DNA from: a virus
Reading direction: 5' to 3' (one strand)
DNA: 64,000 nucleotides
IMG/VR virus record: IMGVR_UViG_3300020404_000006
Part shown: piece after piece, positions 2,926 through 14,075 of the stretch
How the letters are laid out: each line of letters begins with the position of its first letter
How positions within the stretch are numbered: the stretch's first letter is position 1
The notes under the pieces: generated by a model
Told to the model about the DNA's origin: nothing
Seen by the model: only the letters and a program-made list of their open reading frames with translations
The model's database searches: none
Translations under genes and position numbers: made by a program

Positions 2926-5607
2926 ATGGCTCGTCAGGGAATATTTACTGGATTCACACCGAATGATGGTCTGGGAGATTCCCTTGCCTTGGGTGCAACC
3001 AAAGTAAATCAAAACTTTACAGAGATTTATACCACGTTTGGTGACGGTAACAACCTTAGTGTCAACGCAGGCAGTGCTGGTACTTGGACGAAGGCAGGGA
3101 ACTCTGGAATATACACAAGTAAGAACGTAGGTATCGGCACAACCGATCCTAGTGCTGCTTTGTTTGTATCAGGTAACGTTCAATTAACAGGTATTACAAC
3201 TGGAACATTCGTTGGAGATGGTTCTGGTCTTACAGGTGTGACTGCAACAGGTTCTGGTGTTGTCATTAAAGATAGTGGTGTTCTAGTTGGTGTTGCACAG
3301 AGTCTTAACTTCGATAGAAACTTAGATATTACACAAGTATTTGGTGGTAATGTCACAGTTTCTGCTGCTGACACAGTAGGATTTGCATTTACTTCTGGAT
3401 TCTCTACCACATCTGGTTACTCAAACGTTGCTGGAGTATCTACTACATCAGGAACTGCTGGGTTTGCTGACACGGCAACACTGGCACTGACTGCAAACTT
3501 CGCCTCAGTCGCTGGTATCGTAACATACGCATCTGCATCTGGAGTTTCAACTAACTCAGGAGTAGCCGAGTATGCAAAGGTGGCTGGTGTTGCAACATAC
3601 ACTGGTAACACAGGGTTTGCAACCATGGCAGGGTATGCACACACAGCTGGTATCGCCTCAGTCGCACAGAATTTAACAGGAACTCCATCAATAGTTGTTG
3701 ATAATGTCAATGGTCTTGGAATTGTAACCTTCCCAGGCCAAGGTAGTAAGATGCGTTTCGACTTTGACGCAACAGGTGATCTACCTCAAGCAACCTCTTG
3801 GAGAGGTATGTTTGCATGGGCAAATAATACTAAGACTGCATACGTTTCCAGTGGAACCACAATGGGTGGTTACAATGGTTGGAGACAGATACTTCACGGT
3901 GATCATCTAGGTAACTACTTCACTGTGGGTGTTGTAACTGCATCTAAGTTTGCTGGTGATGGATCTGAACTTACAAACTTACCATCAACAGATAGTATTT
4001 GGAGATCAAACTCCACTGGTATTCACACTCTCAGTAACGTTGGTCTTGGAACTACTAATACAGAGTCATATAAACTGAAGGTTGTAGGCAATCTTAAACT
4101 TTCTGGTCGTTTAGATGGTACTGCCACAGATAACTTACTACCATTCTTATGGTCAACCTACGCATCTCTACCATCATCATCCACATATCATGGTCAGTTT
4201 GCTCACGTTCACGAAACAGGTAAGGCATACTATGCACACGCTGGTTGGAATGAACTAGTCAACAAGAATCAAGATCAATCAGTTGGAACTGGAACTGAAA
4301 ACTATAGAGTTGGTGTTGTAACTGGAATATCATTTACAGGTGATGGTTCTGGTTTAAGTAATATTTCTGTTGCATACGCAGCATCTGCTGGTATCGCCTC
4401 TCTTTCACAAGGACTAGAGGGTAAACCAGACATCTTAGTTGCTAACATCAACTGTACTGGTATTGTTACTGGTGCAGTATTCGTTGGAGATGGTTCTGGT
4501 CTTACAGGTATTACTGCATCTGGTAGTGGTATCATCATTAGAGAAGGTGGCACACTCGTAGGAACTATTGGAACTGTAAACTTCGGAACTGGTTTCAGTG
4601 TTTCCCCAGCATCTGCTGGTGTTGTAACAGTCACCACATCAGGTGGTGGCGGTGGTGGATCTGTCTTTACTACCAGAATCGTTGGTATTCAAACAGATAA
4701 CGTAATACCATTCTACTACGACAATTACAGTGACTTCCCATCATCATCTACCTATCATGGTGCAGTTGCTCACTCCCATGACACTGGTAGATTATATTTT
4801 GCACACGCTGGATGGAAAGAATTAGTCAACAGAGAGGCAGATGGCACAGTAGGAACTGGAACTGACAACTACAGAGTTGGAGTTGTTACAGGTACATCTT
4901 TCGCTGCCTCATCATTCATTTCTGTTGGTGGAAATCAAATAACTCAACTGGATATCACACAGTATGAGACTGCATACTCATGGGGCAACCATGCACTTGC
5001 TGGATATCTAACAGGTCTAGGTGGACAAAACTTAGGTAACTTATCTAATGTTTCCAGTGCATCTCCAAATAGTAGTGATGTATTGACATGGAGTGGATCA
5101 GAGTGGGCACCAGCCGCACCTACAGGTGGAACTGGTTCTGGAATCATAATCAAAGAAGAGGGAACTCAAGTTGCATCAGGGATTACTTCGATTGACTTCG
5201 TTGGATCTACCGTAAGTGCAACTGCAACTGGTTCAAACGCAACTATCACAGTCACTGCTGGTACTGGTGGAGGTGGTTCTATTTCCACAACTGGTGTAGG
5301 AACATACACTGCATCTGCTGGTGTGGAACAACAGATAGATTCATTCTCTAAACTCAGTTACTCTGGTGCAGAGTACACATTGATGATCGGTCTAGGAACA
5401 TTCAGACAATCACAAAAACTTCTCGTGATGCACGATGGAACCACAGCATTCTCACAAGAGTATGCTATTATGTTCTCCCCAGAACAACAGGTATCAGTTG
5501 CTTCAACAGTAAGTGGCAACAACGTTTTAGTTAAAGTCACTCCAGAGGCAGGGATATCTGGATTATCTACATACAGATTTGTCAAGACTTACATTGAGAA
5601 CTTATGA
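2926..5607 (+). CDS. Tail fibre-like virion protein, 893 aa
   Basis: N-terminal NDGLGDSL..GATKVNQNFTEIY baseplate-attachment-type motif; repeated F.GDGSGLTG modules; Gly/Thr/Ser-rich. Confidence 0.85.
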   Translation: MARQGIFTGFTPNDGLGDSLALGATKVNQNFTEIYTTFGDGNNLSVNAGSAGTWTKAGNSGIYTSKNVGIGTTDPSAALFVSGNVQLTGITTGTFVGDGSGLTGVTATGSGVVIKDSGVLVGVAQSLNFDRNLDITQVFGGNVTVSAADTVGFAFTSGFSTTSGYSNVAGVSTTSGTAGFADTATLALTANFASVAGIVTYASASGVSTNSGVAEYAKVAGVATYTGNTGFATMAGYAHTAGIASVAQNLTGTPSIVVDNVNGLGIVTFPGQGSKMRFDFDATGDLPQATSWRGMFAWANNTKTAYVSSGTTMGGYNGWRQILHGDHLGNYFTVGVVTASKFAGDGSELTNLPSTDSIWRSNSTGIHTLSNVGLGTTNTESYKLKVVGNLKLSGRLDGTATDNLLPFLWSTYASLPSSSTYHGQFAHVHETGKAYYAHAGWNELVNKNQDQSVGTGTENYRVGVVTGISFTGDGSGLSNISVAYAASAGIASLSQGLEGKPDILVANINCTGIVTGAVFVGDGSGLTGITASGSGIIIREGGTLVGTIGTVNFGTGFSVSPASAGVVTVTTSGGGGGGSVFTTRIVGIQTDNVIPFYYDNYSDFPSSSTYHGAVAHSHDTGRLYFAHAGWKELVNREADGTVGTGTDNYRVGVVTGTSFAASSFISVGGNQITQLDITQYETAYSWGNHALAGYLTGLGGQNLGNLSNVSSASPNSSDVLTWSGSEWAPAAPTGGTGSGIIIKEEGTQVASGITSIDFVGSTVSATATGSNATITVTAGTGGGGSISTTGVGTYTASAGVEQQIDSFSKLSYSGAEYTLMIGLGTFRQSQKLLVMHDGTTAFSQEYAIMFSPEQQVSVASTVSGNNVLVKVTPEAGISGLSTYRFVKTYIENL
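3207..4509 (+). repeat. Exact 31-nt direct repeat pair (3207-3237 and 4479-4509)
   Basis: attcgttggagatggttctggtcttacaggt occurs twice, 1272 nt apart (in frame). Confidence 0.9.
4129..4902 (+). repeat. His-rich ~69-aa internal repeats in fibre (4129-~4335, 4696-~4902; divergent copy ~3748-3951)
   Basis: DNLLPF..PSSSTYHGQFAHVHETGKAYYAHAGWNELVN vs DNVIPF..PSSSTYHGAVAHSHDTGRLYFAHAGWKELVN. Confidence 0.85.
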
Positions 5608-7820
5608 TTCACACTAGTACGAACACTCTTGATAGGACAGGGTTAGCTGTCAAACCAACTGGAGCTAACGACAAGAAGGCATACTCTATCAAATGTTATA
5701 CCAAAGATGACTGGGTATTCATTCATGAAGAACTAGAAAAAGATGGTTCACTGGAAGATAATATTCCAGATCCATCAATAGTGTGTCCCGATAAAAAGGA
5801 ACATAGTGATACCAGAGCAACCTACATGTTGACTGATGCGGAAGCAGAAGACCTAAGAAAACATGAGAGGGTAGAGTTTGTCTGTATTGATTATGACGCT
5901 TACCCAGGCAACTACGCTCCCGATCCAAAAGATATTGTTGCTAGTATACAAAAGTTTGGTAGAGGAACAGGGTCGGTATCCAACTACAGAGCATGGAATA
6001 CTTCACCGACAGGCACTAGACCACCTACATCTCAGGCTGGTATAGGTGCATCAGATAAGAACAGAACTGGATATCAGATACTAAGACACACACAGAAAGA
6101 GAATCCTTGGGATGCAACATCCACTGGACTAACTCAATCTGATCATATTATTATAGAGACAGAGACAAAACAATTAGGCGATGGCACTGGTGTAGATGCA
6201 ATCGTGTCTGATGATGGTTTCTGGATTGCACACCCAGAATTTGTAACAACTGATGATGATCCTGTAGGATACTCAACAGGAAACGCATTGACATGGAGTG
6301 GTATATCTACAACACCAGGCACATGTGGTGTCCTAGATGTACTTCTTGATGGTCCATATTATATTGACCCAGACTGGTTCAATGCAGATCCAGGCAATAG
6401 ATTGACTCAACGTTGGGATGGTACAACAGTCCCAGTAGAGTCTGTAGCAAGAGCATGGTGGTCTGATTCAAGTCAGAGATCAGTAGGATTCTCTACCATT
6501 GGTACTACTAGTGGTTTCAGTGCTTTCTACAGTAGACAAAGTTGCAATGGAAGTAATACACAGAAACCAACCAACGGATCTGACCACGGAACTCAATGTG
6601 CTGGTCAAGTATTTGGTAAAAATTATGGATCTGCATACAACTGTAACAAGTGGGTGTTAAATGGTATTGGTGGTTCCAATGCTGGAATCAATGGTAGTCA
6701 ATTTGATATACAAAAACTCTTCCACTTATATAAACCAAACTATGATAGACATTCTGCTGTTACTGGCAAACAAAATGATACTAAAAACCCAACACTGTCA
6801 AGTAATAGTTGGGGATATAGGGACGATGCCATTCATGATGGTGGATTCTACTGGTATAGACCATCATCTATAGATGGATTAGTGCCTGGCACATCATATA
6901 CAAGTGGTAGTGAACCAGAATTCATTGATTTACTAGGTGCATATGGTGATGGTAGTAGAATGAAAGGAGAGATGGTAGATAGTTCTGTAACCGCATCTGG
7001 TAAAGAACTGTCTGACGCTGGAGTGATCTTCGTCTGTGCTGCTGGTAATAGTAATCAAACTCAGGTAAGGCCTGGCGATCTTGATTTTGACAACTATTGG
7101 GCTACAGCTGCTCAAGGAAATGATTCTCCTCTATCAGCGAGCACTCATTTTGAATTTGGTTTACAATGTTATAACACTATCAATAGAAGAGGGTGGCCAC
7201 AGTCATTAGGTAAAACTACATCTGGTTTATCTACTGCTGGAACTGAGTATGCTGCTATCAATATTGGTGCGTTAGATGATCAAATTGTAAGTGGTGGACT
7301 GGGTGGTAACACCACAGACTATAAAGAAAAGAAAGTTTCCTATAGTGACATGGGAACAGGTATTGATTGTTATGGTGCTGCTGATGACACAATGACAGCA
7401 GATGGTAGAGCGTCATCTCTTACATATCCACACCCAGAAACATATAGTGGGTTGACTTTAACTCCGTATGATATTGATTTTGGTGGCACTAGTTCTGGAT
7501 GTCCTACATGTGCTGGATGGATCACTACCAAACTACAATATAATAGAGATTGGACTTACACTGATGTAAGAAACTGGTTAAATAACAGTTGTGGTGCTCA
7601 ATCTCCTGACAGATTTTACTATGGTGATAACATAACAGGATTCACATCGACAACAGCTGCATGGGAGGATATGTATTCCGTCCAGATGTATGGTCAAGGA
7701 CCTGTTGTAATATGGGATGCTCCTACTGGTTCACCTACTGAACCAAAGAAACCTGAGATTAGAATCACAAACTCACCAAACTTAAAGTTTAGTGGTGGAG
7801 TTGAGATAAAATTCTCCTAA
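5604..7820 (+). CDS. Subtilisin-like (S8) serine protease, 738 aa
   Basis: Triad in subtilase order: D203 (IVSDDG), H328 (SDHGTQCAG), oxyanion N482 (AAGNS), S630 (FGGTSSGCP); N-terminal propeptide-like segment; ATGA overlap with fibre gene. Confidence 0.85.
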   Translation: MIHTSTNTLDRTGLAVKPTGANDKKAYSIKCYTKDDWVFIHEELEKDGSLEDNIPDPSIVCPDKKEHSDTRATYMLTDAEAEDLRKHERVEFVCIDYDAYPGNYAPDPKDIVASIQKFGRGTGSVSNYRAWNTSPTGTRPPTSQAGIGASDKNRTGYQILRHTQKENPWDATSTGLTQSDHIIIETETKQLGDGTGVDAIVSDDGFWIAHPEFVTTDDDPVGYSTGNALTWSGISTTPGTCGVLDVLLDGPYYIDPDWFNADPGNRLTQRWDGTTVPVESVARAWWSDSSQRSVGFSTIGTTSGFSAFYSRQSCNGSNTQKPTNGSDHGTQCAGQVFGKNYGSAYNCNKWVLNGIGGSNAGINGSQFDIQKLFHLYKPNYDRHSAVTGKQNDTKNPTLSSNSWGYRDDAIHDGGFYWYRPSSIDGLVPGTSYTSGSEPEFIDLLGAYGDGSRMKGEMVDSSVTASGKELSDAGVIFVCAAGNSNQTQVRPGDLDFDNYWATAAQGNDSPLSASTHFEFGLQCYNTINRRGWPQSLGKTTSGLSTAGTEYAAINIGALDDQIVSGGLGGNTTDYKEKKVSYSDMGTGIDCYGAADDTMTADGRASSLTYPHPETYSGLTLTPYDIDFGGTSSGCPTCAGWITTKLQYNRDWTYTDVRNWLNNSCGAQSPDRFYYGDNITGFTSTTAAWEDMYSVQMYGQGPVVIWDAPTGSPTEPKKPEIRITNSPNLKFSGGVEIKFS

Positions 7821-7844: not shown

Positions 7845-8708
7845 ATGGCAGACAAATCATTTGGTGTAAAGGACCTGAATATAGTTGGAGCGAGTGGTGA
7901 TCCAACTATAGAAAGTAATGGTGACCTAAATTTAAAAGCTGGTCAAGTTGCTATCCAGACTAACACCACAGTCACAGGAGTTGTTACTGCATCTTCATTT
8001 GTTGGTGATGGATCAGGACTCACAGGAGTTACTGGTACTGGTTCTGGTATTGTAATTAAGGACACCAACTCTCTTATTGGAACTGCTGGAACAATTAACT
8101 TTGGCGATGCCTTATCTGTTTCTCCAGCATCAGCTGGTGTGGTCACAGTCACCGCTGCAAACACACAACTTTCCACTGAGGAAGTTCAAGACATCGTAGG
8201 TGGTATGGTTGATGGTGGAACTGAAACCAACATCACAGTAACTTATAATGACACTTCTGGTAAACTTAATTTTGAAGCTTCTGGAGGATCTGTCCCTGCA
8301 AACCTTACTGCAACTACTCTAGATGTATCTGGTATCTGTACTGCTGGTAGTTTTGTCACCGATCTTACCACTGGTAATGGAACTGATAGATCATTTGCAA
8401 TAAGATATACTGTGGGATCAAACGGTGCTTCTTCATACTGGTTTGCAGGTCCTGGCATCCTTAATAACATGTCAAATCCTACTCTATATCTACAGAGAGG
8501 AATGACCTATATCTTCAACAACACCACTGGGTCTTCACACCCATTCCGTATTCAATTCCAAGGCACATCAACAGGTGTAGGAACATATGTTAGTGGATCT
8601 CAGAATGGAGAACAAGTATTCATCATACCGCACACTGCGCCTGGAGCATATGAATATCAATGCACCATTCATGGTGGTATGAAAGGCACATTTATTATCC
8701 CTAGTTAA
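7845..8708 (+). CDS. Fibre-like virion protein with C-terminal cupredoxin (type-1 copper) domain
   Basis: FVGDGSGLTG..SVSPASAGVVTVT fibre module; H232 (HPF) plus C273-x2-H276-x2-M279. Confidence 0.8.
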   Translation: MADKSFGVKDLNIVGASGDPTIESNGDLNLKAGQVAIQTNTTVTGVVTASSFVGDGSGLTGVTGTGSGIVIKDTNSLIGTAGTINFGDALSVSPASAGVVTVTAANTQLSTEEVQDIVGGMVDGGTETNITVTYNDTSGKLNFEASGGSVPANLTATTLDVSGICTAGSFVTDLTTGNGTDRSFAIRYTVGSNGASSYWFAGPGILNNMSNPTLYLQRGMTYIFNNTTGSSHPFRIQFQGTSTGVGTYVSGSQNGEQVFIIPHTAPGAYEYQCTIHGGMKGTFIIPS

Positions 8709-9337: not shown

Positions 9338-9345
9338 TATAAATA
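9338..9345 (+). promoter_or_regulatory. T4 late promoter, perfect TATAAATA
   Basis: Exact consensus, 28 nt upstream of ATG 9374. Confidence 0.8.
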
Positions 9346-9373
9346 CAGGCAGACTAAGTAGTGGGAAATCAAC

Positions 9374-9886
9374 ATGAAAAGATTTTTACCTATAATTATG
9401 CTTTTGATGGCGGCTCCCATGGCAGCGAGGGCCGATTTGATTCACAGATTGACTACGAGTACCCAACTCAGTGTTGACGGCGCAGCGACTCAGGCTACAA
9501 GAATTGGCTCAACTTATAGCGTAAGCGGTAACAATATCACCGCTGGTACTATGGGTGGACTCACCAAGTCAGCTGGAGATACAATTACAACTGCGGCGGC
9601 TAGTCAGACTCAAGGTTCTTACTCAGTTACTACTGCTGGCAGTGCCTTCAGCCTAACAGAATCATTTATTCTAGGCGATGCAGTAAATCCAATAGGAACT
9701 GGTGTTGACGTATCTGCTGGTATTGTTGCTGACATGCCTGCATATGGTAGTGTAGTAACACAAAGTGGCGGCGTGGCAGGCAGTCTTGCTGGCACGATTA
9801 CCTCAGCGGGCGTTATGACGCTAACAGCTGGAGGCGCAGGCACTAGTGCTACTGGCCAATTCGTTTCAGAAATTTCGATAGATTGA
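9374..9886 (+). CDS. Exported beta-rich protein (signal peptide)
   Basis: MKRFLPIIMLLMAAPMAARA|D Sec-type signal with AxA site; Thr/Ser/Gly-rich. Confidence 0.85.
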   Translation: MKRFLPIIMLLMAAPMAARADLIHRLTTSTQLSVDGAATQATRIGSTYSVSGNNITAGTMGGLTKSAGDTITTAAASQTQGSYSVTTAGSAFSLTESFILGDAVNPIGTGVDVSAGIVADMPAYGSVVTQSGGVAGSLAGTITSAGVMTLTAGGAGTSATGQFVSEISID

Positions 9887-9895
9887 ACATGACTA

Positions 9896-10381
9896 ATGAA
9901 GAAACTTCTTGCGACATTTGTGGTTGCACTTGCCCTTGCGAATGTGAGGACTGCGAAGGCTGTGCCTGTGGTCCCTAATTTCCAACAGGGCAGCATGACA
10001 TCTCGGACCGAAACGACTTCGACAGTGACCGAGACCATAAATTCAATCGATATGAGGACAGGATGGGAGTACAGCGTGACGGGCACAGGGGTCTCCAACA
10101 ATGGAGAAGCCCTCAACCCACCAGTGAATACATCAACGGTGAATGTGACACCGAGCAGTTCAGCGGGTGCAACAGGAGGAGCAGTGGTGACAGGAACAGT
10201 AACAAGTTCCTTCGACTCCTTAGACTTCTCCAACCCAAGCAGCTTTACAATAACAAATCCAGGCGGAGCTTTCCAATTTACACAGAGCTACCAAGGGCCT
10301 GGCATGACCAATCAGACAATAATACAGAGAGTCACCACCATAGAAAGCGTGACCGACACAACTTCAACGTTTACGCAATAA
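9896..10381 (+). CDS. Exported beta-rich protein (signal peptide), probable paralog of upstream gene
   Basis: MKKLLATFVVALALANVRTAKA|V signal; shares YSV(S/T)G and G.AF..T.S(F/Y) with 9374..9886. Confidence 0.85.
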   Translation: MKKLLATFVVALALANVRTAKAVPVVPNFQQGSMTSRTETTSTVTETINSIDMRTGWEYSVTGTGVSNNGEALNPPVNTSTVNVTPSSSAGATGGAVVTGTVTSSFDSLDFSNPSSFTITNPGGAFQFTQSYQGPGMTNQTIIQRVTTIESVTDTTSTFTQ

Positions 10382-11229
10382 GTACATTAGTACTATCAAT
10401 TATCTCTCCGACGGCGGCATTAGCAGAGAATGTTGGAGGGGTATCAGCTACAGCAAATCCAATCGCGAACAGCTCGGGCAGTGTCACAAATCAAGCTATA
10501 CAGGTGCTACAGGGACCGTATATAACTAATACTTACGGTGGTGGCGTGCAATGTCAAGGTGCTACTGTTAACTTCACACCCTACTTACAATTTGCGGACA
10601 GTAGAAAAGATCCGTGGAGAGATGTAGTAATGGAACCTCAGTATAATACTACTGACTTCACTGGTCGTACCACACAACAAACTGTTACTGTAAAGAACTA
10701 TCCTTGGGAGTCATGGTATGACACAAGGACTAAAGCAGATGGAACTAGATGGTTCCCTGATGGGGAAGACATGGAGATAACAGTAGACGTAGATGGTCCA
10801 GACGGCATACCAGACAATCCTGGCCAAGTGGTCTGGGAGAAACCTGTTCGTACTGACATGACAGCAAACCAGTCATTGAATCTTGGTTTGTCTGCCACCC
10901 TATCCATACCATTGAATAGAAAACTACAAAAGCAATGTATGGAGGCAGCACAACTACAAAACAATATGCAGACTCAACTGATTGCTAACAAGAGATTAGA
11001 TTTTGAACTAGCGAGACTGAAGAATTGTGGCGAATTGAAAAAGAGTGGCATATTTTTCCACCCCAAATCACCCTACTATTCAGTATGTGCTGATGTAGTA
11101 GTTACAAATCCTGGCGGTCAATTACTTCCTCACACACATGATATGCCTGCACCAAATTGGAAAGAAGAAAAGACAAGTAATGACGCAAATGTTCTAGGAA
11201 CATTCTCTATCGGAGACACTAAAGATTAA
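10378..11229 (+). CDS. Exported protein with OEP/TolC-like beta-strand + helix segment; start codon uncertain
   Basis: ORF track begins at 10063 inside the upstream gene; signal-like ISTLVLSIISPTAALA|E begins at ATA 10378; NLGLSATLSIPL followed by a helical segment; Cys pairs. Confidence 0.7.
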   Translation: MSTLVLSIISPTAALAENVGGVSATANPIANSSGSVTNQAIQVLQGPYITNTYGGGVQCQGATVNFTPYLQFADSRKDPWRDVVMEPQYNTTDFTGRTTQQTVTVKNYPWESWYDTRTKADGTRWFPDGEDMEITVDVDGPDGIPDNPGQVVWEKPVRTDMTANQSLNLGLSATLSIPLNRKLQKQCMEAAQLQNNMQTQLIANKRLDFELARLKNCGELKKSGIFFHPKSPYYSVCADVVVTNPGGQLLPHTHDMPAPNWKEEKTSNDANVLGTFSIGDTKD

Positions 11230-11726
11230 TGTTTAGACCGCCATACTGGTCTCATGATAATGTTCAACTCTCTGATAGTATAATAAACAAATTAAAATCC
11301 CGACTGTCAGAGATAGAATTGATTGACAATCATAAAAGTTCTTACTGGATCAATCAAGAGTATGAAGATCAGGCACCAGATAGATTTTTAAATGAAAGAT
11401 ACGATATTATTGTAGAAGATATCGTGAAGAGTGTAGGTGCTTTCAACAAAATGGCATACACATATACATTCTGGTCACAACTATATGATCAGGGTAATAA
11501 TATAGGGGAACATAATCACATTCCCTCAGATATATCTTGGGTTCACTTCGTAGATGTGCCAGATCAAAAGTGCTTTCGTTTTACTGACACCAAAGGGAAC
11601 ACATTAGTTCCTGATGGTCAGAGTAGTGGTGATATAATTTGTTTCCCTTCATGGTTATGGCATGAAACCATACCAACTGATGAACAAAGGTTGATTGTCT
11701 CTGGTAATATAACTTTTACTTACTAG
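11229..11726 (+). CDS. 2OG-Fe(II) oxygenase-like protein
   Basis: HNH..S.ISWVHFV...GDIICFPSWLWHE...RLIVSGN double-stranded beta-helix pattern. Confidence 0.75.
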   Translation: MFRPPYWSHDNVQLSDSIINKLKSRLSEIELIDNHKSSYWINQEYEDQAPDRFLNERYDIIVEDIVKSVGAFNKMAYTYTFWSQLYDQGNNIGEHNHIPSDISWVHFVDVPDQKCFRFTDTKGNTLVPDGQSSGDIICFPSWLWHETIPTDEQRLIVSGNITFTY

Positions 11727-12594
11727 ACTTCTTTAAGTCCTTTATCATATTCTTTCGATCACCAAACCTTAGTTCTGGTAATCCTTTTTGTTTTCTATAC
11801 TTATTAGTTCTTATCTCGGCTGCAGAGAGTTTATTCTCTTTCTTACCTAATGCTTTCTGAACTCTCTTGATAACCTGTTTGACTAAGGGTTTGACAACTC
11901 TCAGTAGTAGAGGTGTTGCAGCTGCCGCTGCAGTAGCCACTATTGCGATTGATGCTGTTGTACTTACCTGATTTGTACTTGGCAAAAATTTCTCAAGAGT
12001 TGTAGTAGGTTCATACAACGTCTCACATATTTTCTGTTTAGGATTATTTGGATCAGTTATCAACTGATGTCCAGTCACCCTCTCGTCTCCTGACGAAGTT
12101 ACATCACCCACTCTAAGTTGATTAGGACCAGGGCACTCAGGATCTTTATAATCTTCTGGAGTATTTGGTCTACTAGTATTGGACTCTGGTGGTGGAGGTG
12201 GATCACCTGTATCGACACCACCTGTAACTTCCTCTGGTTCGCCGTATACTGTAGTCCATGTTAGTTCATTTGCCTGATAGTCAGGTGGTTCATAGTATGG
12301 CATACCACCATCACATAATACTACATTACCTTTAGGGTCATCATTGACCAAATTTTTATTTCTGGATGGATCTCTCTTAGCGTTTTCTTTATTTACCTTG
12401 ACACATCCTGGCATATCTACGACAGGCACTCCTATATTGACAGTTACAGGTGGAGTGTAAGGAACTGCCTGTGGAGGGGTCGCCATCCAAGGTCTAGGAA
12501 TATTTGCAATAGTAAGTGTGCCTGTGTCTATGGGTTGGATAAATCTCAATCCACTCCCATTAATAAAGATCTGTGGGATCTGATTATTTGGCAT
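11716..12594 (-). CDS. Pro-rich protein with C-terminal membrane anchor and basic tail
   Basis: 292 aa; hydrophobic ASIAIVATAAAAATPLLL near C-terminus; four Cys upstream. Confidence 0.8.
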   Translation of the reverse strand: MPNNQIPQIFINGSGLRFIQPIDTGTLTIANIPRPWMATPPQAVPYTPPVTVNIGVPVVDMPGCVKVNKENAKRDPSRNKNLVNDDPKGNVVLCDGGMPYYEPPDYQANELTWTTVYGEPEEVTGGVDTGDPPPPPESNTSRPNTPEDYKDPECPGPNQLRVGDVTSSGDERVTGHQLITDPNNPKQKICETLYEPTTTLEKFLPSTNQVSTTASIAIVATAAAAATPLLLRVVKPLVKQVIKRVQKALGKKENKLSAAEIRTNKYRKQKGLPELRFGDRKNMIKDLKKSSK

Positions 12595-13610: not shown

Positions 13611-14075
13611 TTACATCTCATACTTTTTAGGATCAGTTTCGGTAGTTATTTTTAAAGGTGCTTGTTCGACACGGATGACTTGTGCTGGTGCAGTTTGTGA
13701 TGCCGCAGCAATAAGTTTTTCCATATCTGCCTTAGTTACTCCACTGCCACCACCATTAGCAGTACCGTTACCATTCATCTTCATAGTACCGTCACCTTTC
13801 TTAGATGCGGTCTGGATGCCAAAGCTCGCTAGCACGCCTGTAAAAACTGATGCTATAAATGTCGGATCAATTTTCTGTTGAGGAACGCCTGGAATGGCCA
13901 CATAATTTAAAGTCAAAATTCCGCCGCTCCAAACCAACACGCCAAGACGAACAAATGTACTAATGATAGCAGCCTGCTCATCTTCATCGGGTAAGATTTT
14001 GTCTTTTATTTTTTCGAGAACGCCTTTCGGTTTCTCTTCTTCTTTCTTAGGGGAAGTTTTAACAGATTCTGGCAT
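13611..14075 (-). CDS. Two-TM membrane protein
   Basis: 154 aa; AAIISTFVRLGVLVWSGGILTL and TFIASVFTGVLASFGI hydrophobic segments; charged N-terminus. Confidence 0.8.
   Translation of the reverse strand: MPESVKTSPKKEEEKPKGVLEKIKDKILPDEDEQAAIISTFVRLGVLVWSGGILTLNYVAIPGVPQQKIDPTFIASVFTGVLASFGIQTASKKGDGTMKMNGNGTANGGGSGVTKADMEKLIAAASQTAPAQVIRVEQAPLKITTETDPKKYEM

Follow-up and report, generated by a model that had tools for sequence, protein, structure and literature searches.

In 15 of 16 cyanomyoviruses, genes for hypothetical proteins belonging to T4-GCs 218, 219, 234, 235, and 237 lie together in what Sullivan et al. (2010) call a set "clustered for functional reasons" (PMC3037559). We analyzed a 64,000-nucleotide stretch of viral DNA (IMG/VR record IMGVR_UViG_3300020404_000006; here, the window) that carries these genes in the same order and with the same convergent partners (GC234, 219, 218, and a "plasmid stability" protein). 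The region is 86% identical at the nucleotide level to Synechococcus phage S-SSM7, a T4-like cyanomyovirus, and has weaker DNA matches to 382 cyanophage records. At its center are three genes, g1, g2, and g3, whose counterparts in S-SSM7 and Syn19 are labeled T4-GC 237, 236, and 235; this trio is a real, widely conserved, uncharacterized cyanophage module. The passages of Sullivan et al. on the cluster (PMC3037559) contain no export signals, no paralogy, no lost start codon or overprinted leader, and no podovirus counterpart, all of which are described here, and our literature search found no later characterization of T4-GC 237, 236, or 235, no paper on "DUF6322," and nothing relevant on "gp165" in connection with cyanophages. 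We consider it probable that the operon encodes three exported, nonvirion proteins and that g3 has lost its own start codon and captured an out-of-frame ATG within g2.

The sequence-only reading of this DNA had described three adjacent genes, each with a Sec-type signal peptide. The genes are indeed neighbors on the plus strand, with the g3 frame ending at 11229, and for g1 and g2 the signal peptides are classical, with a Met, a basic n-region, an h-region, and a small-x-small site for signal peptidase I at the true N terminus. The product of g1 (170 amino acids; positions 9374 to 9886, plus strand; T4-GC 237) comes from an open reading frame (ORF) that matches phrog_564 at 2e-56; its signal peptide comprises residues 1 to 20 (9374 to 9433; MKRFLPIIMLLMAAPMAARA, then D), starts with MKR, and has a hydrophobic segment at residues 4 to 23 and an ARA-D cleavage site. 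The product of g2 (161 amino acids; 9896 to 10381, plus strand; T4-GC 236, phrog_650) belongs to Pfam DUF6322 (1.2e-34), and its signal peptide comprises residues 1 to 22 (9896 to 9961; MKKLLATFVVALALANVRTAKA, then VPVV), with an MKK start, a hydrophobic window at residues 1 to 20, and an AKA-V site. In g3 a signal segment is present but has no adjacent start codon, which the earlier reading missed along with the overlap between g3 and g2. The hydrophobic core and an ALA cleavage-type site (ORF residues 106 to 121; 10378 to 10425, plus strand; AISTLVLSIISPTAALA, then ENVGG) fall in the sole hydrophobic window of the ORF (residues 103 to 121), no ATG, GTG, or TTG stands beside it, and the first canonical start in frame is an ATG at 10063, 105 codons upstream and inside g2. 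Because no start codon flanks the h-region, the n-region would be 105 residues long. The full g3 ORF (388 amino acids; 10063 to 11229, plus strand; T4-GC 235, the "gp165" family, phrog_848/1755) starts at this ATG in the -1 frame relative to g2, and S-SSM7 annotates the same long ORF as SSSM7_227. The dual-coding overlap spans 319 nucleotides (10063 to 10381, plus strand), with the C-terminal half of g2 in frame 0 and the g3 leader in frame -1, and the g3 frame is open back to 9979. The junction reads GCA ATA AGT, in which the ATA overlaps the g2 stop codon (CAA TAA).

This arrangement recurs among the relatives, in which g3 always lies in the -1 frame relative to g2, and no canonical start was found near the hydrophobic segment of g3 in about 80 related viral contigs and loci. 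The last 100 codons of g2 contained no stop in the -1 frame in 61 of 61 distinct loci, compared with 2.7 to 6.7 stops in shuffles of synonymous codons that kept the protein and its codon usage, where the frame stayed open in at most 4.5% of trials. Thus, the open -1 frame is not due to chance. Stops were not avoided in the +1 frame of g2, which had 5 to 15 of them, as expected.

When the sample was widened by two scans seeded with distant family members and by three look-ups of distant homologs, 142 distinct junctions fell into two classes. Six junctions, from three lineages, have an ATG overlapping the g2 stop (ATGA); these need no upstream ATG, have only 1 to 11 open codons in the -1 frame, and show 4.2 stops in the last 50 codons of g2, against 3.4 expected. 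The other 136 lack the junction ATG, have at least 40 open -1 codons, and show 0.00 to 0.04 stops over the same 50 codons, against about 1.9 expected. Their junction codons are ATA (80), GTA (46), GTG (7), and CTA, CTG, and TTA (1 each), and nearly all of them have an upstream ATG either 54 to 56 or 101 to 107 codons back. At-risk g2 codons, in which a final T would produce a -1 stop, end in T in 0 of 1,941 cases inside the open stretch, a count that is zero by construction of the stretch, in 35% just upstream of it, and in 48% in the relatives with a junction ATG. The signal peptides that those relatives carry at precisely this point are classical (for example, MKRVLATLLLLTAPAQA followed by QV, and MKKLIPVFALTALLSPAAYA followed by QG).

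The upstream ATG, too, is under constraint. The g2 codons for Gly56 and Trp57 (GGA TGG) create it, and Thr55 is encoded by ACA and Gly56 by GGA in all 57 distinct relatives, while most other conserved fourfold sites in g2 have a codon entropy of 0.6 to 1.9 bits. Apart from freedom from stops, the leader sequence is unconstrained: its mean pairwise amino acid identity is 49%, compared with 51% for the untranslated +1 frame and 80% for g2. The leader carries a net positive charge in every case (+4 to +20), and the +1 frame is also somewhat basic.

These observations suggest that g3 originally began at an ATG sharing bases with the g2 stop (ATGA) and had a classical signal peptide, and that this start codon was then lost in podovirus P-SSP7 and most cyanomyovirus lineages, usually by change to ATA or GTA. 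An out-of-frame ATG lying 54 to 107 codons back within g2, in its -1 frame (here, the one at 10063), would have been captured, and selection would now merely keep the leader path free of stops. The basic leader may serve as a very long n-region ahead of the old hydrophobic core and AxA site, and so we propose that the mature 267-amino-acid g3 domain is still exported. Like other phage genes that overlap or are overprinted, g2 and g3 would share DNA translated in two frames, and the newer frame is basic, apparently disordered, and poorly conserved, as overprinted regions typically are; what differs is that the product would be a stop-free leader restoring initiation to an old gene rather than a new protein. 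Extended signal-peptide regions likewise have a long n-region ahead of a normal h/c signal core. If this is right, the g2/g3 junction offers a natural example, unusually clean, of start codon loss rescued by an out-of-frame ATG in the preceding gene, and the rescued start leaves a measurable signature, namely, stop avoidance without sequence constraint.

A constant -1 relation, with the g3 frame open across the 3' half of g2, is also what a g2-g3 fusion made by programmed -1 ribosomal frameshifting within g2 would produce. Only 53 of the 125 distinct g2 genes contain an in-frame X_XXY_YYZ heptamer. Within the overlap no such heptamer holds a conserved position, and the most frequent one is found close to the 5' end of g2. 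Moreover, a conserved ATG with invariant codons marks the beginning of the open frame, this ATG takes two discrete positions in different clades, and a fusion would put a second hydrophobic segment behind an already exported domain. Frameshifting was therefore rejected as very unlikely, since there is no conserved slippery site and the ATG is conserved. Initiation at the junction ATA or GTA itself, by termination-reinitiation after g2 and with a short signal peptide, would make the upstream frame incidental or a minor route. The junction codon sits exactly at the ancestral ATG position, GTG is found there in seven lineages, and plausible signal peptides would result in some lineages (M-KAICLSALSVVVTAPVNA in P-SSM2, and one with a basic n-region in locus L057). 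However, reinitiation leaves unexplained the near-complete avoidance of stops over 40 to 146 codons, the invariant upstream ATG, and the strict association of both with loss of the junction ATG. Additionally, GTA is two positions away from AUG, and in the window the resulting peptide would have no charged n-region. We regard this route as rather unlikely.

Capture of the upstream ATG thus remains the preferred account of g3 expression, and several points weigh against it. An n-region as long as 105 residues is unusual ahead of a signal core, the relatives with a GTG junction keep the long open frame, so that two starts may coexist, and related sequences are non-independent samples.

The same layout is found outside the myoviruses. 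In P-SSP7, a T7-like podovirus (AY939843), g3 is also in the -1 frame of g2 (locus L087, 3659 to 4282); its frame is open for 56 codons upstream, and a GTG at 3671 lies inside gene 044, 37 codons back. This GTG, within g2, is probably the g3 start. With the GTG annotated as its start (3827), PSSP7_045 would lack the signal segment, and the annotated GTG start of "gp165" in P-SSM2 falls at the mature N terminus. In S-SSM7 (NC_015287) g2 is unannotated: the 29-amino-acid, wrong-frame, Cys-rich ORF SSSM7_228 is annotated instead, whereas the real 161-amino-acid g2 occupies 6593 to 7078 (locus L001, 6586 to 7078). P-RSM6 also lacks a g2 annotation. The g2/g3 layout thereby exposes systematic annotation errors, with g2 missing (S-SSM7 and P-RSM6) or g3 seemingly truncated (P-SSM2 and P-SSP7). 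In a database homolog of g2 (P0310), about 25 residues switch into a -1-frame reading (KQLYNNKSRRSVPIHSKS) and then back; this may be natural variation or a pair of assembly indels, and it is an example of the two frames being mistaken for each other.

Both proteins encoded upstream of g3 fit the description of beta-rich paralogs given in the sequence-only reading. The motifs YSV(S/T)G and G.AF..T.S(F/Y) do occur in both g1 and g2, and hhalign, run on alignments of 24 representatives per family, related the two families with a probability of 96.4% (E value of 1.3e-9 over 60 columns), the aligned columns spanning both motifs (TG.EYSVSG and pG.aFqFtes). The g2 protein scores 119 bits against DUF6322 (PF19847; cutoff, 30.6), and g1 stays below threshold (14.6 bits; E value of 0.049). 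In the distant loci L088 to L090, precomputed Pfam annotations list DUF6322 for the homologs of both genes; a direct scan of the L088 homolog of g1 was likewise subthreshold (E value of 0.044). Thus, g1 and g2 are distant paralogs of the all-beta DUF6322 family. The mature N terminus of g2, VPVVPNF, is kept immediately after AKA in 36 aligned relatives, and its C terminus, SVTDTTSTFTQ, is invariant among relatives. An AlphaFold (AF2) model of mature g2 is all-beta, with strands of 24 to 25 residues at both ends and a low confidence (predicted local distance difference test [pLDDT] score of 67). Searches of PDB sequences with each of the three proteins yielded no meaningful match. Matches of the g2 family profile to designed WD40 repeat proteins (E value of 1e-8) were treated as spurious because they are repeat-summed matches of about 40 residues with 0 to 2 significant stretches.

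The third protein had been claimed to resemble the outer membrane efflux family OEP/TolC. Its mature domain (267 amino acids; 10426 to 11226, plus strand) contains an N-terminal strand region, a beta domain, a helix, and four conserved Cys residues. The motif behind the claim, NLGLSATLSIPL, is present as the last beta strand before the long helix (10879 to 10914, plus strand, as read from the sequence), and a predicted 42-residue helix (10918 to 11043; mature residues 165 to 206) comes next, so that motif, helix, and Cys residues are all as described. Within the g3 family, G154, P162, and L163 are nearly invariant, and conservation is found in an N-terminal GGVSATANPIANSSGSVTNQAIQVL stretch and in a C-terminal block of G.SAT.S.PL-x-helix, on either side of a variable middle; Cys171, Cys201, and Cys221 lie in the C-terminal block and Cys43 in the N-terminal part. 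The AF2 model (pLDDT, 80; moderate confidence) has a disordered N-terminal stretch of 33 residues, a beta domain at 35 to 162, and the single 42-residue helix. Two features are in common with TolC: a strand with ..S.PL at its end leads into a long alpha helix, and export is predicted. TolC proteins, however, consist of two tandem repeats with barrel strands and long helical hairpins, about 430 to 500 amino acids in total; g3 is about half that size, with one helix and no internal repeat.

Database searches gave the TolC assignment no further support. Pfam-A hmmscan of the g3 region at an E value of ≤1 returned no family and, in particular, no OEP (PF02321), and a 60-sequence g3 family profile had no match among all PDB sequences at an E value of ≤10. 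No TolC-family chain was listed when the monomer model of g3 was searched by Foldseek against PDB (best E value of 0.15), by the wide VIA search, or by VIA re-ranking; the fold matches listed by VIA were mostly generic single long helices (Z ≤ 5), and beta-hairpin matches were below noise. A BFVD search with g3 recovered just its own uncharacterized family ("Gp165" in P-SSM7 and in podovirus P-SSP10, with further members in P-SSP3 and S-TIP37), the ESM Atlas search returned unnamed viral clusters only, and no convincing solved fold was found for the AlphaFold models of g2 and g3. With no Pfam, PDB, or listed fold match, g3 is not filed under TolC.

A weaker likeness is to subunits of oligomeric barrels. 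The g2 protein is predicted to be a pair of strands of about 24 residues plus a small head, comparable to the long-hairpin subunits of lysenin, the anthrax PA pore, the phi29/Andhra lower collar, the FliF beta-collar, and SpoIIIAG; these are its top fold matches and are weak, below significance for a monomer model (Foldseek E values of 0.007 to 0.2; Z ≤ 3.9). Taken together, g2 and the beta domain of g3 show a weak likeness to lysenin, the anthrax PA pore, and the phi29/Andhra collar (E values of 0.007 to 0.4; Z of 2 to 4), and their weak top matches also include the iota and CDTb toxins, FliF, and SpoIIIAG. Along with the strand-Pro-Leu-helix junction and the long helix of g3, this is what would favor an OEP/TolC-like outer membrane channel with g1 and g2 as filament or plug subunits. 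Since the barrel-like matches are below the noise levels of the tools themselves and the searches and domain architecture described above argue against such a channel, we consider it very improbable; as a modeled likeness, the resemblance to oligomeric barrels is a lead for multimer modeling rather than evidence.

The operon stands behind a late-type box, as the sequence-only reading proposed. The perfect box reported at 9338 is there (TATAAATA, 9338 to 9345, plus strand), 29 nucleotides 5' of the g1 ATG, and it fits the late consensus published for cyanomyoviruses, NATAAATA (PMC2984593). By count alone the motif does not exceed chance: the window contains 3 copies, and 3.5 would be expected. 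Among distinct upstream regions of relatives, 42 of 98 have a late-type box before g1, mostly 30 to 35 nucleotides from the ATG (variants include TATAAATA in 14, CTAAATA in 13, and CTATATA in 9), and in other relatives a coding gene lies directly upstream of g1.

In the window and in S-SSM7, baseplate-like genes (gp9/gp10-like) lie just upstream of the operon, which would suit a trio of ordinary baseplate or tail fiber components. The upstream neighbors vary among phages, however, being dam, hsp20, hli, or talC genes in Syn19, S-SSM5, S-CAM4, P-RSM6, and P-SSM2, whereas the convergent GC234 gene is constant and always adjoins g3. The earlier claim that the trio is exported and not part of the virion agrees with literature on relatives of the window phage: the full supplementary list of proteins that Sullivan et al. 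detected in virions of S-SM1, S-PM2, and Syn9 (Suppl. Table 8, PMC3037559) includes no member of T4-GC 218, 219, or 234 to 237. The lack of detection in the S-SM1 and Syn9 proteomes, the Sec signal peptides, and the occurrence of the module in both myoviruses and podoviruses make a virion role extremely unlikely.

The trio is among the most widespread uncharacterized genes of ocean cyanophages. Word-based searches gave at least nearly 8,000 metagenomic matches for each protein, and an exhaustive search for the g3 family gave 402 representatives at 50% clustering. Every isolate matching the module infects Synechococcus or Prochlorococcus. When one genome was scanned for each prokaryote species, just a misbinned phage contig (94% identity) and one insignificant match came up, and NCBIfam has no bacterial family for any of the seven cluster proteins. 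The genes g2 and g3 and the convergent gene also occur in a third lineage, allied to Synechococcus phages S-LBS1 and S-H1. The module is thus common to phage lineages that otherwise have little in common.

Two linked genes on the minus strand encode further putative membrane proteins. The convergent partner GC234 (292 amino acids; 11716 to 12594; phrog_570) is rich in Pro and Cys, with a hydrophobic segment at residues 210 to 234 and a basic tail, and is homologous to the convergent gene of distant locus L088 (E value of 2e-22). The DUF6450 protein (13611 to 14075; T4-GC 218; Pfam, 2.3e-34) has two hydrophobic segments; it is small, with two transmembrane segments and charged ends, holin-like in shape, and in L088 its gene is directly upstream of g1. 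P-SSP7 has one co-oriented block of a GC234-like gene (042), DUF6450 (043), g2 (044), and g3 (045). Gene 043 matches DUF6450 at 2e-32 (L087, 3112 to 3423) and 044 matches phrog_650 at 2e-32, while the resemblance of 042 (phrog_9426) to the GC234 of the window is weak (pairwise E value of 0.027; phrog_9426 E value of 0.0046). The block lies between the tail fiber gene gp17 and the terminase gene gp19. In T7, the holin and spanin genes are located between gp17 and gp19.

The late operon would thus make three proteins for the periplasm or outer membrane of the host and not for the virion, and they would act with GC234 and DUF6450 as a late envelope complex. The constant convergent GC234 gene, the absence from virions, the P-SSP7 block, the occurrence in phages of picocyanobacteria, and the lack of identifiable spanins in several of these phages make such a complex, possibly for the outer membrane step of lysis, our leading functional guess, a tentative one on circumstantial grounds. 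According to Kongari et al. (PMC6139136), S-SSM7, P-SSM2, Syn19, P-SSP7, and 16 other phages of picocyanobacteria have no identifiable spanin, 20 of 91 "spanin-less" phages infect picocyanobacteria, and noncanonical topologies or an outer membrane protein could substitute for spanins. In its fullest form, which is possible though doubtful, the trio with GC234 and DUF6450 would be a disruption or release device spanning the periplasm and outer membrane in the spanin-less phages of picocyanobacteria, T4-like, T7-like, and S-LBS1-like, with g3 made via its overprinted leader. If so, the leader might also couple the dosage of g3 to the translation of g2. The module is a concrete candidate for the means by which these cyanophages breach the outer membrane.

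Compared with two-component spanins (lambda Rz/Rz1 and T7 gp18.5/18.7), the module shares putatively late, periplasm-directed proteins, a coiled-coil segment, conserved Cys residues, overlapped genes, and, in the podovirus, a position between tail fiber and terminase. It differs in its beta-rich partners, in the lack of any sequence or fold similarity, and in the form of the overlap: Rz1 is embedded inside Rz, whereas here the 5' end of the downstream gene overlaps the 3' half of the upstream gene. Mature g1, g2, and g3 would start with D, V, and E, respectively, and not with the lipobox Cys of an o-spanin. If the signal segment of g3 stayed uncleaved, the predicted topology of the precursor would be that of an i-spanin, an N-in/C-out anchor with a periplasmic coiled coil.

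A role in lysis also has several observations to its disadvantage. It draws on synteny in one podovirus, on timing inferred from a promoter-like box, and on the lack of known spanins; no lipobox was found in g1, g2, or g3, and no endolysin is linked to the trio. In addition, S-PM2 lacks the cluster, according to Sullivan et al. (PMC3037559), and still lyses its host. The main alternative is a role of the trio in remodeling or masking the surface of the host after export, for superinfection exclusion or to protect progeny from debris. Phage outer membrane proteins that block receptors are known, for example, lambda Lom (discussed in a preprint), and the module is confined to phages of picocyanobacteria. 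Exclusion genes, however, tend to be expressed early or constitutively, while the box in front of this operon is of the late type, and in P-SSP7 the module occupies the position of a lysis cassette; we think surface remodeling unlikely.

Other genes near the trio have features of their own. A 2OG-Fe(II) oxygenase gene (PF13759, phrog_81; 11229 to 11726, plus strand) lies between g3 and GC234, with its ATG overlapping the g3 stop, and among the loci inspected this insertion was found in the S-SSM7-like lineage only. Upstream, the C-terminal part (about 70 residues) of a gp9-like baseplate/tail fiber connector (phrog_677; 7845 to 8708, plus strand) gave weak cupredoxin/plastocyanin-type matches that were below cutoffs (E values of 0.006 to 0.05). 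A 738-amino-acid ORF among the baseplate genes (5604 to 7820, plus strand) has an ortholog in S-SSM7 that is annotated with a PF00082 (subtilase) domain. In L088, a gene for a "cyanophage outer membrane protein-like beta barrel" (Phage_OMP, PF24653; 4808 to 5170, minus strand) lies a few kilobases from the trio. Similarly, S-SSM5 has a DUF680-annotated gene (SSSM5_164) a few kilobases from its trio, and a preprint equates DUF680 with this OMP-like family.

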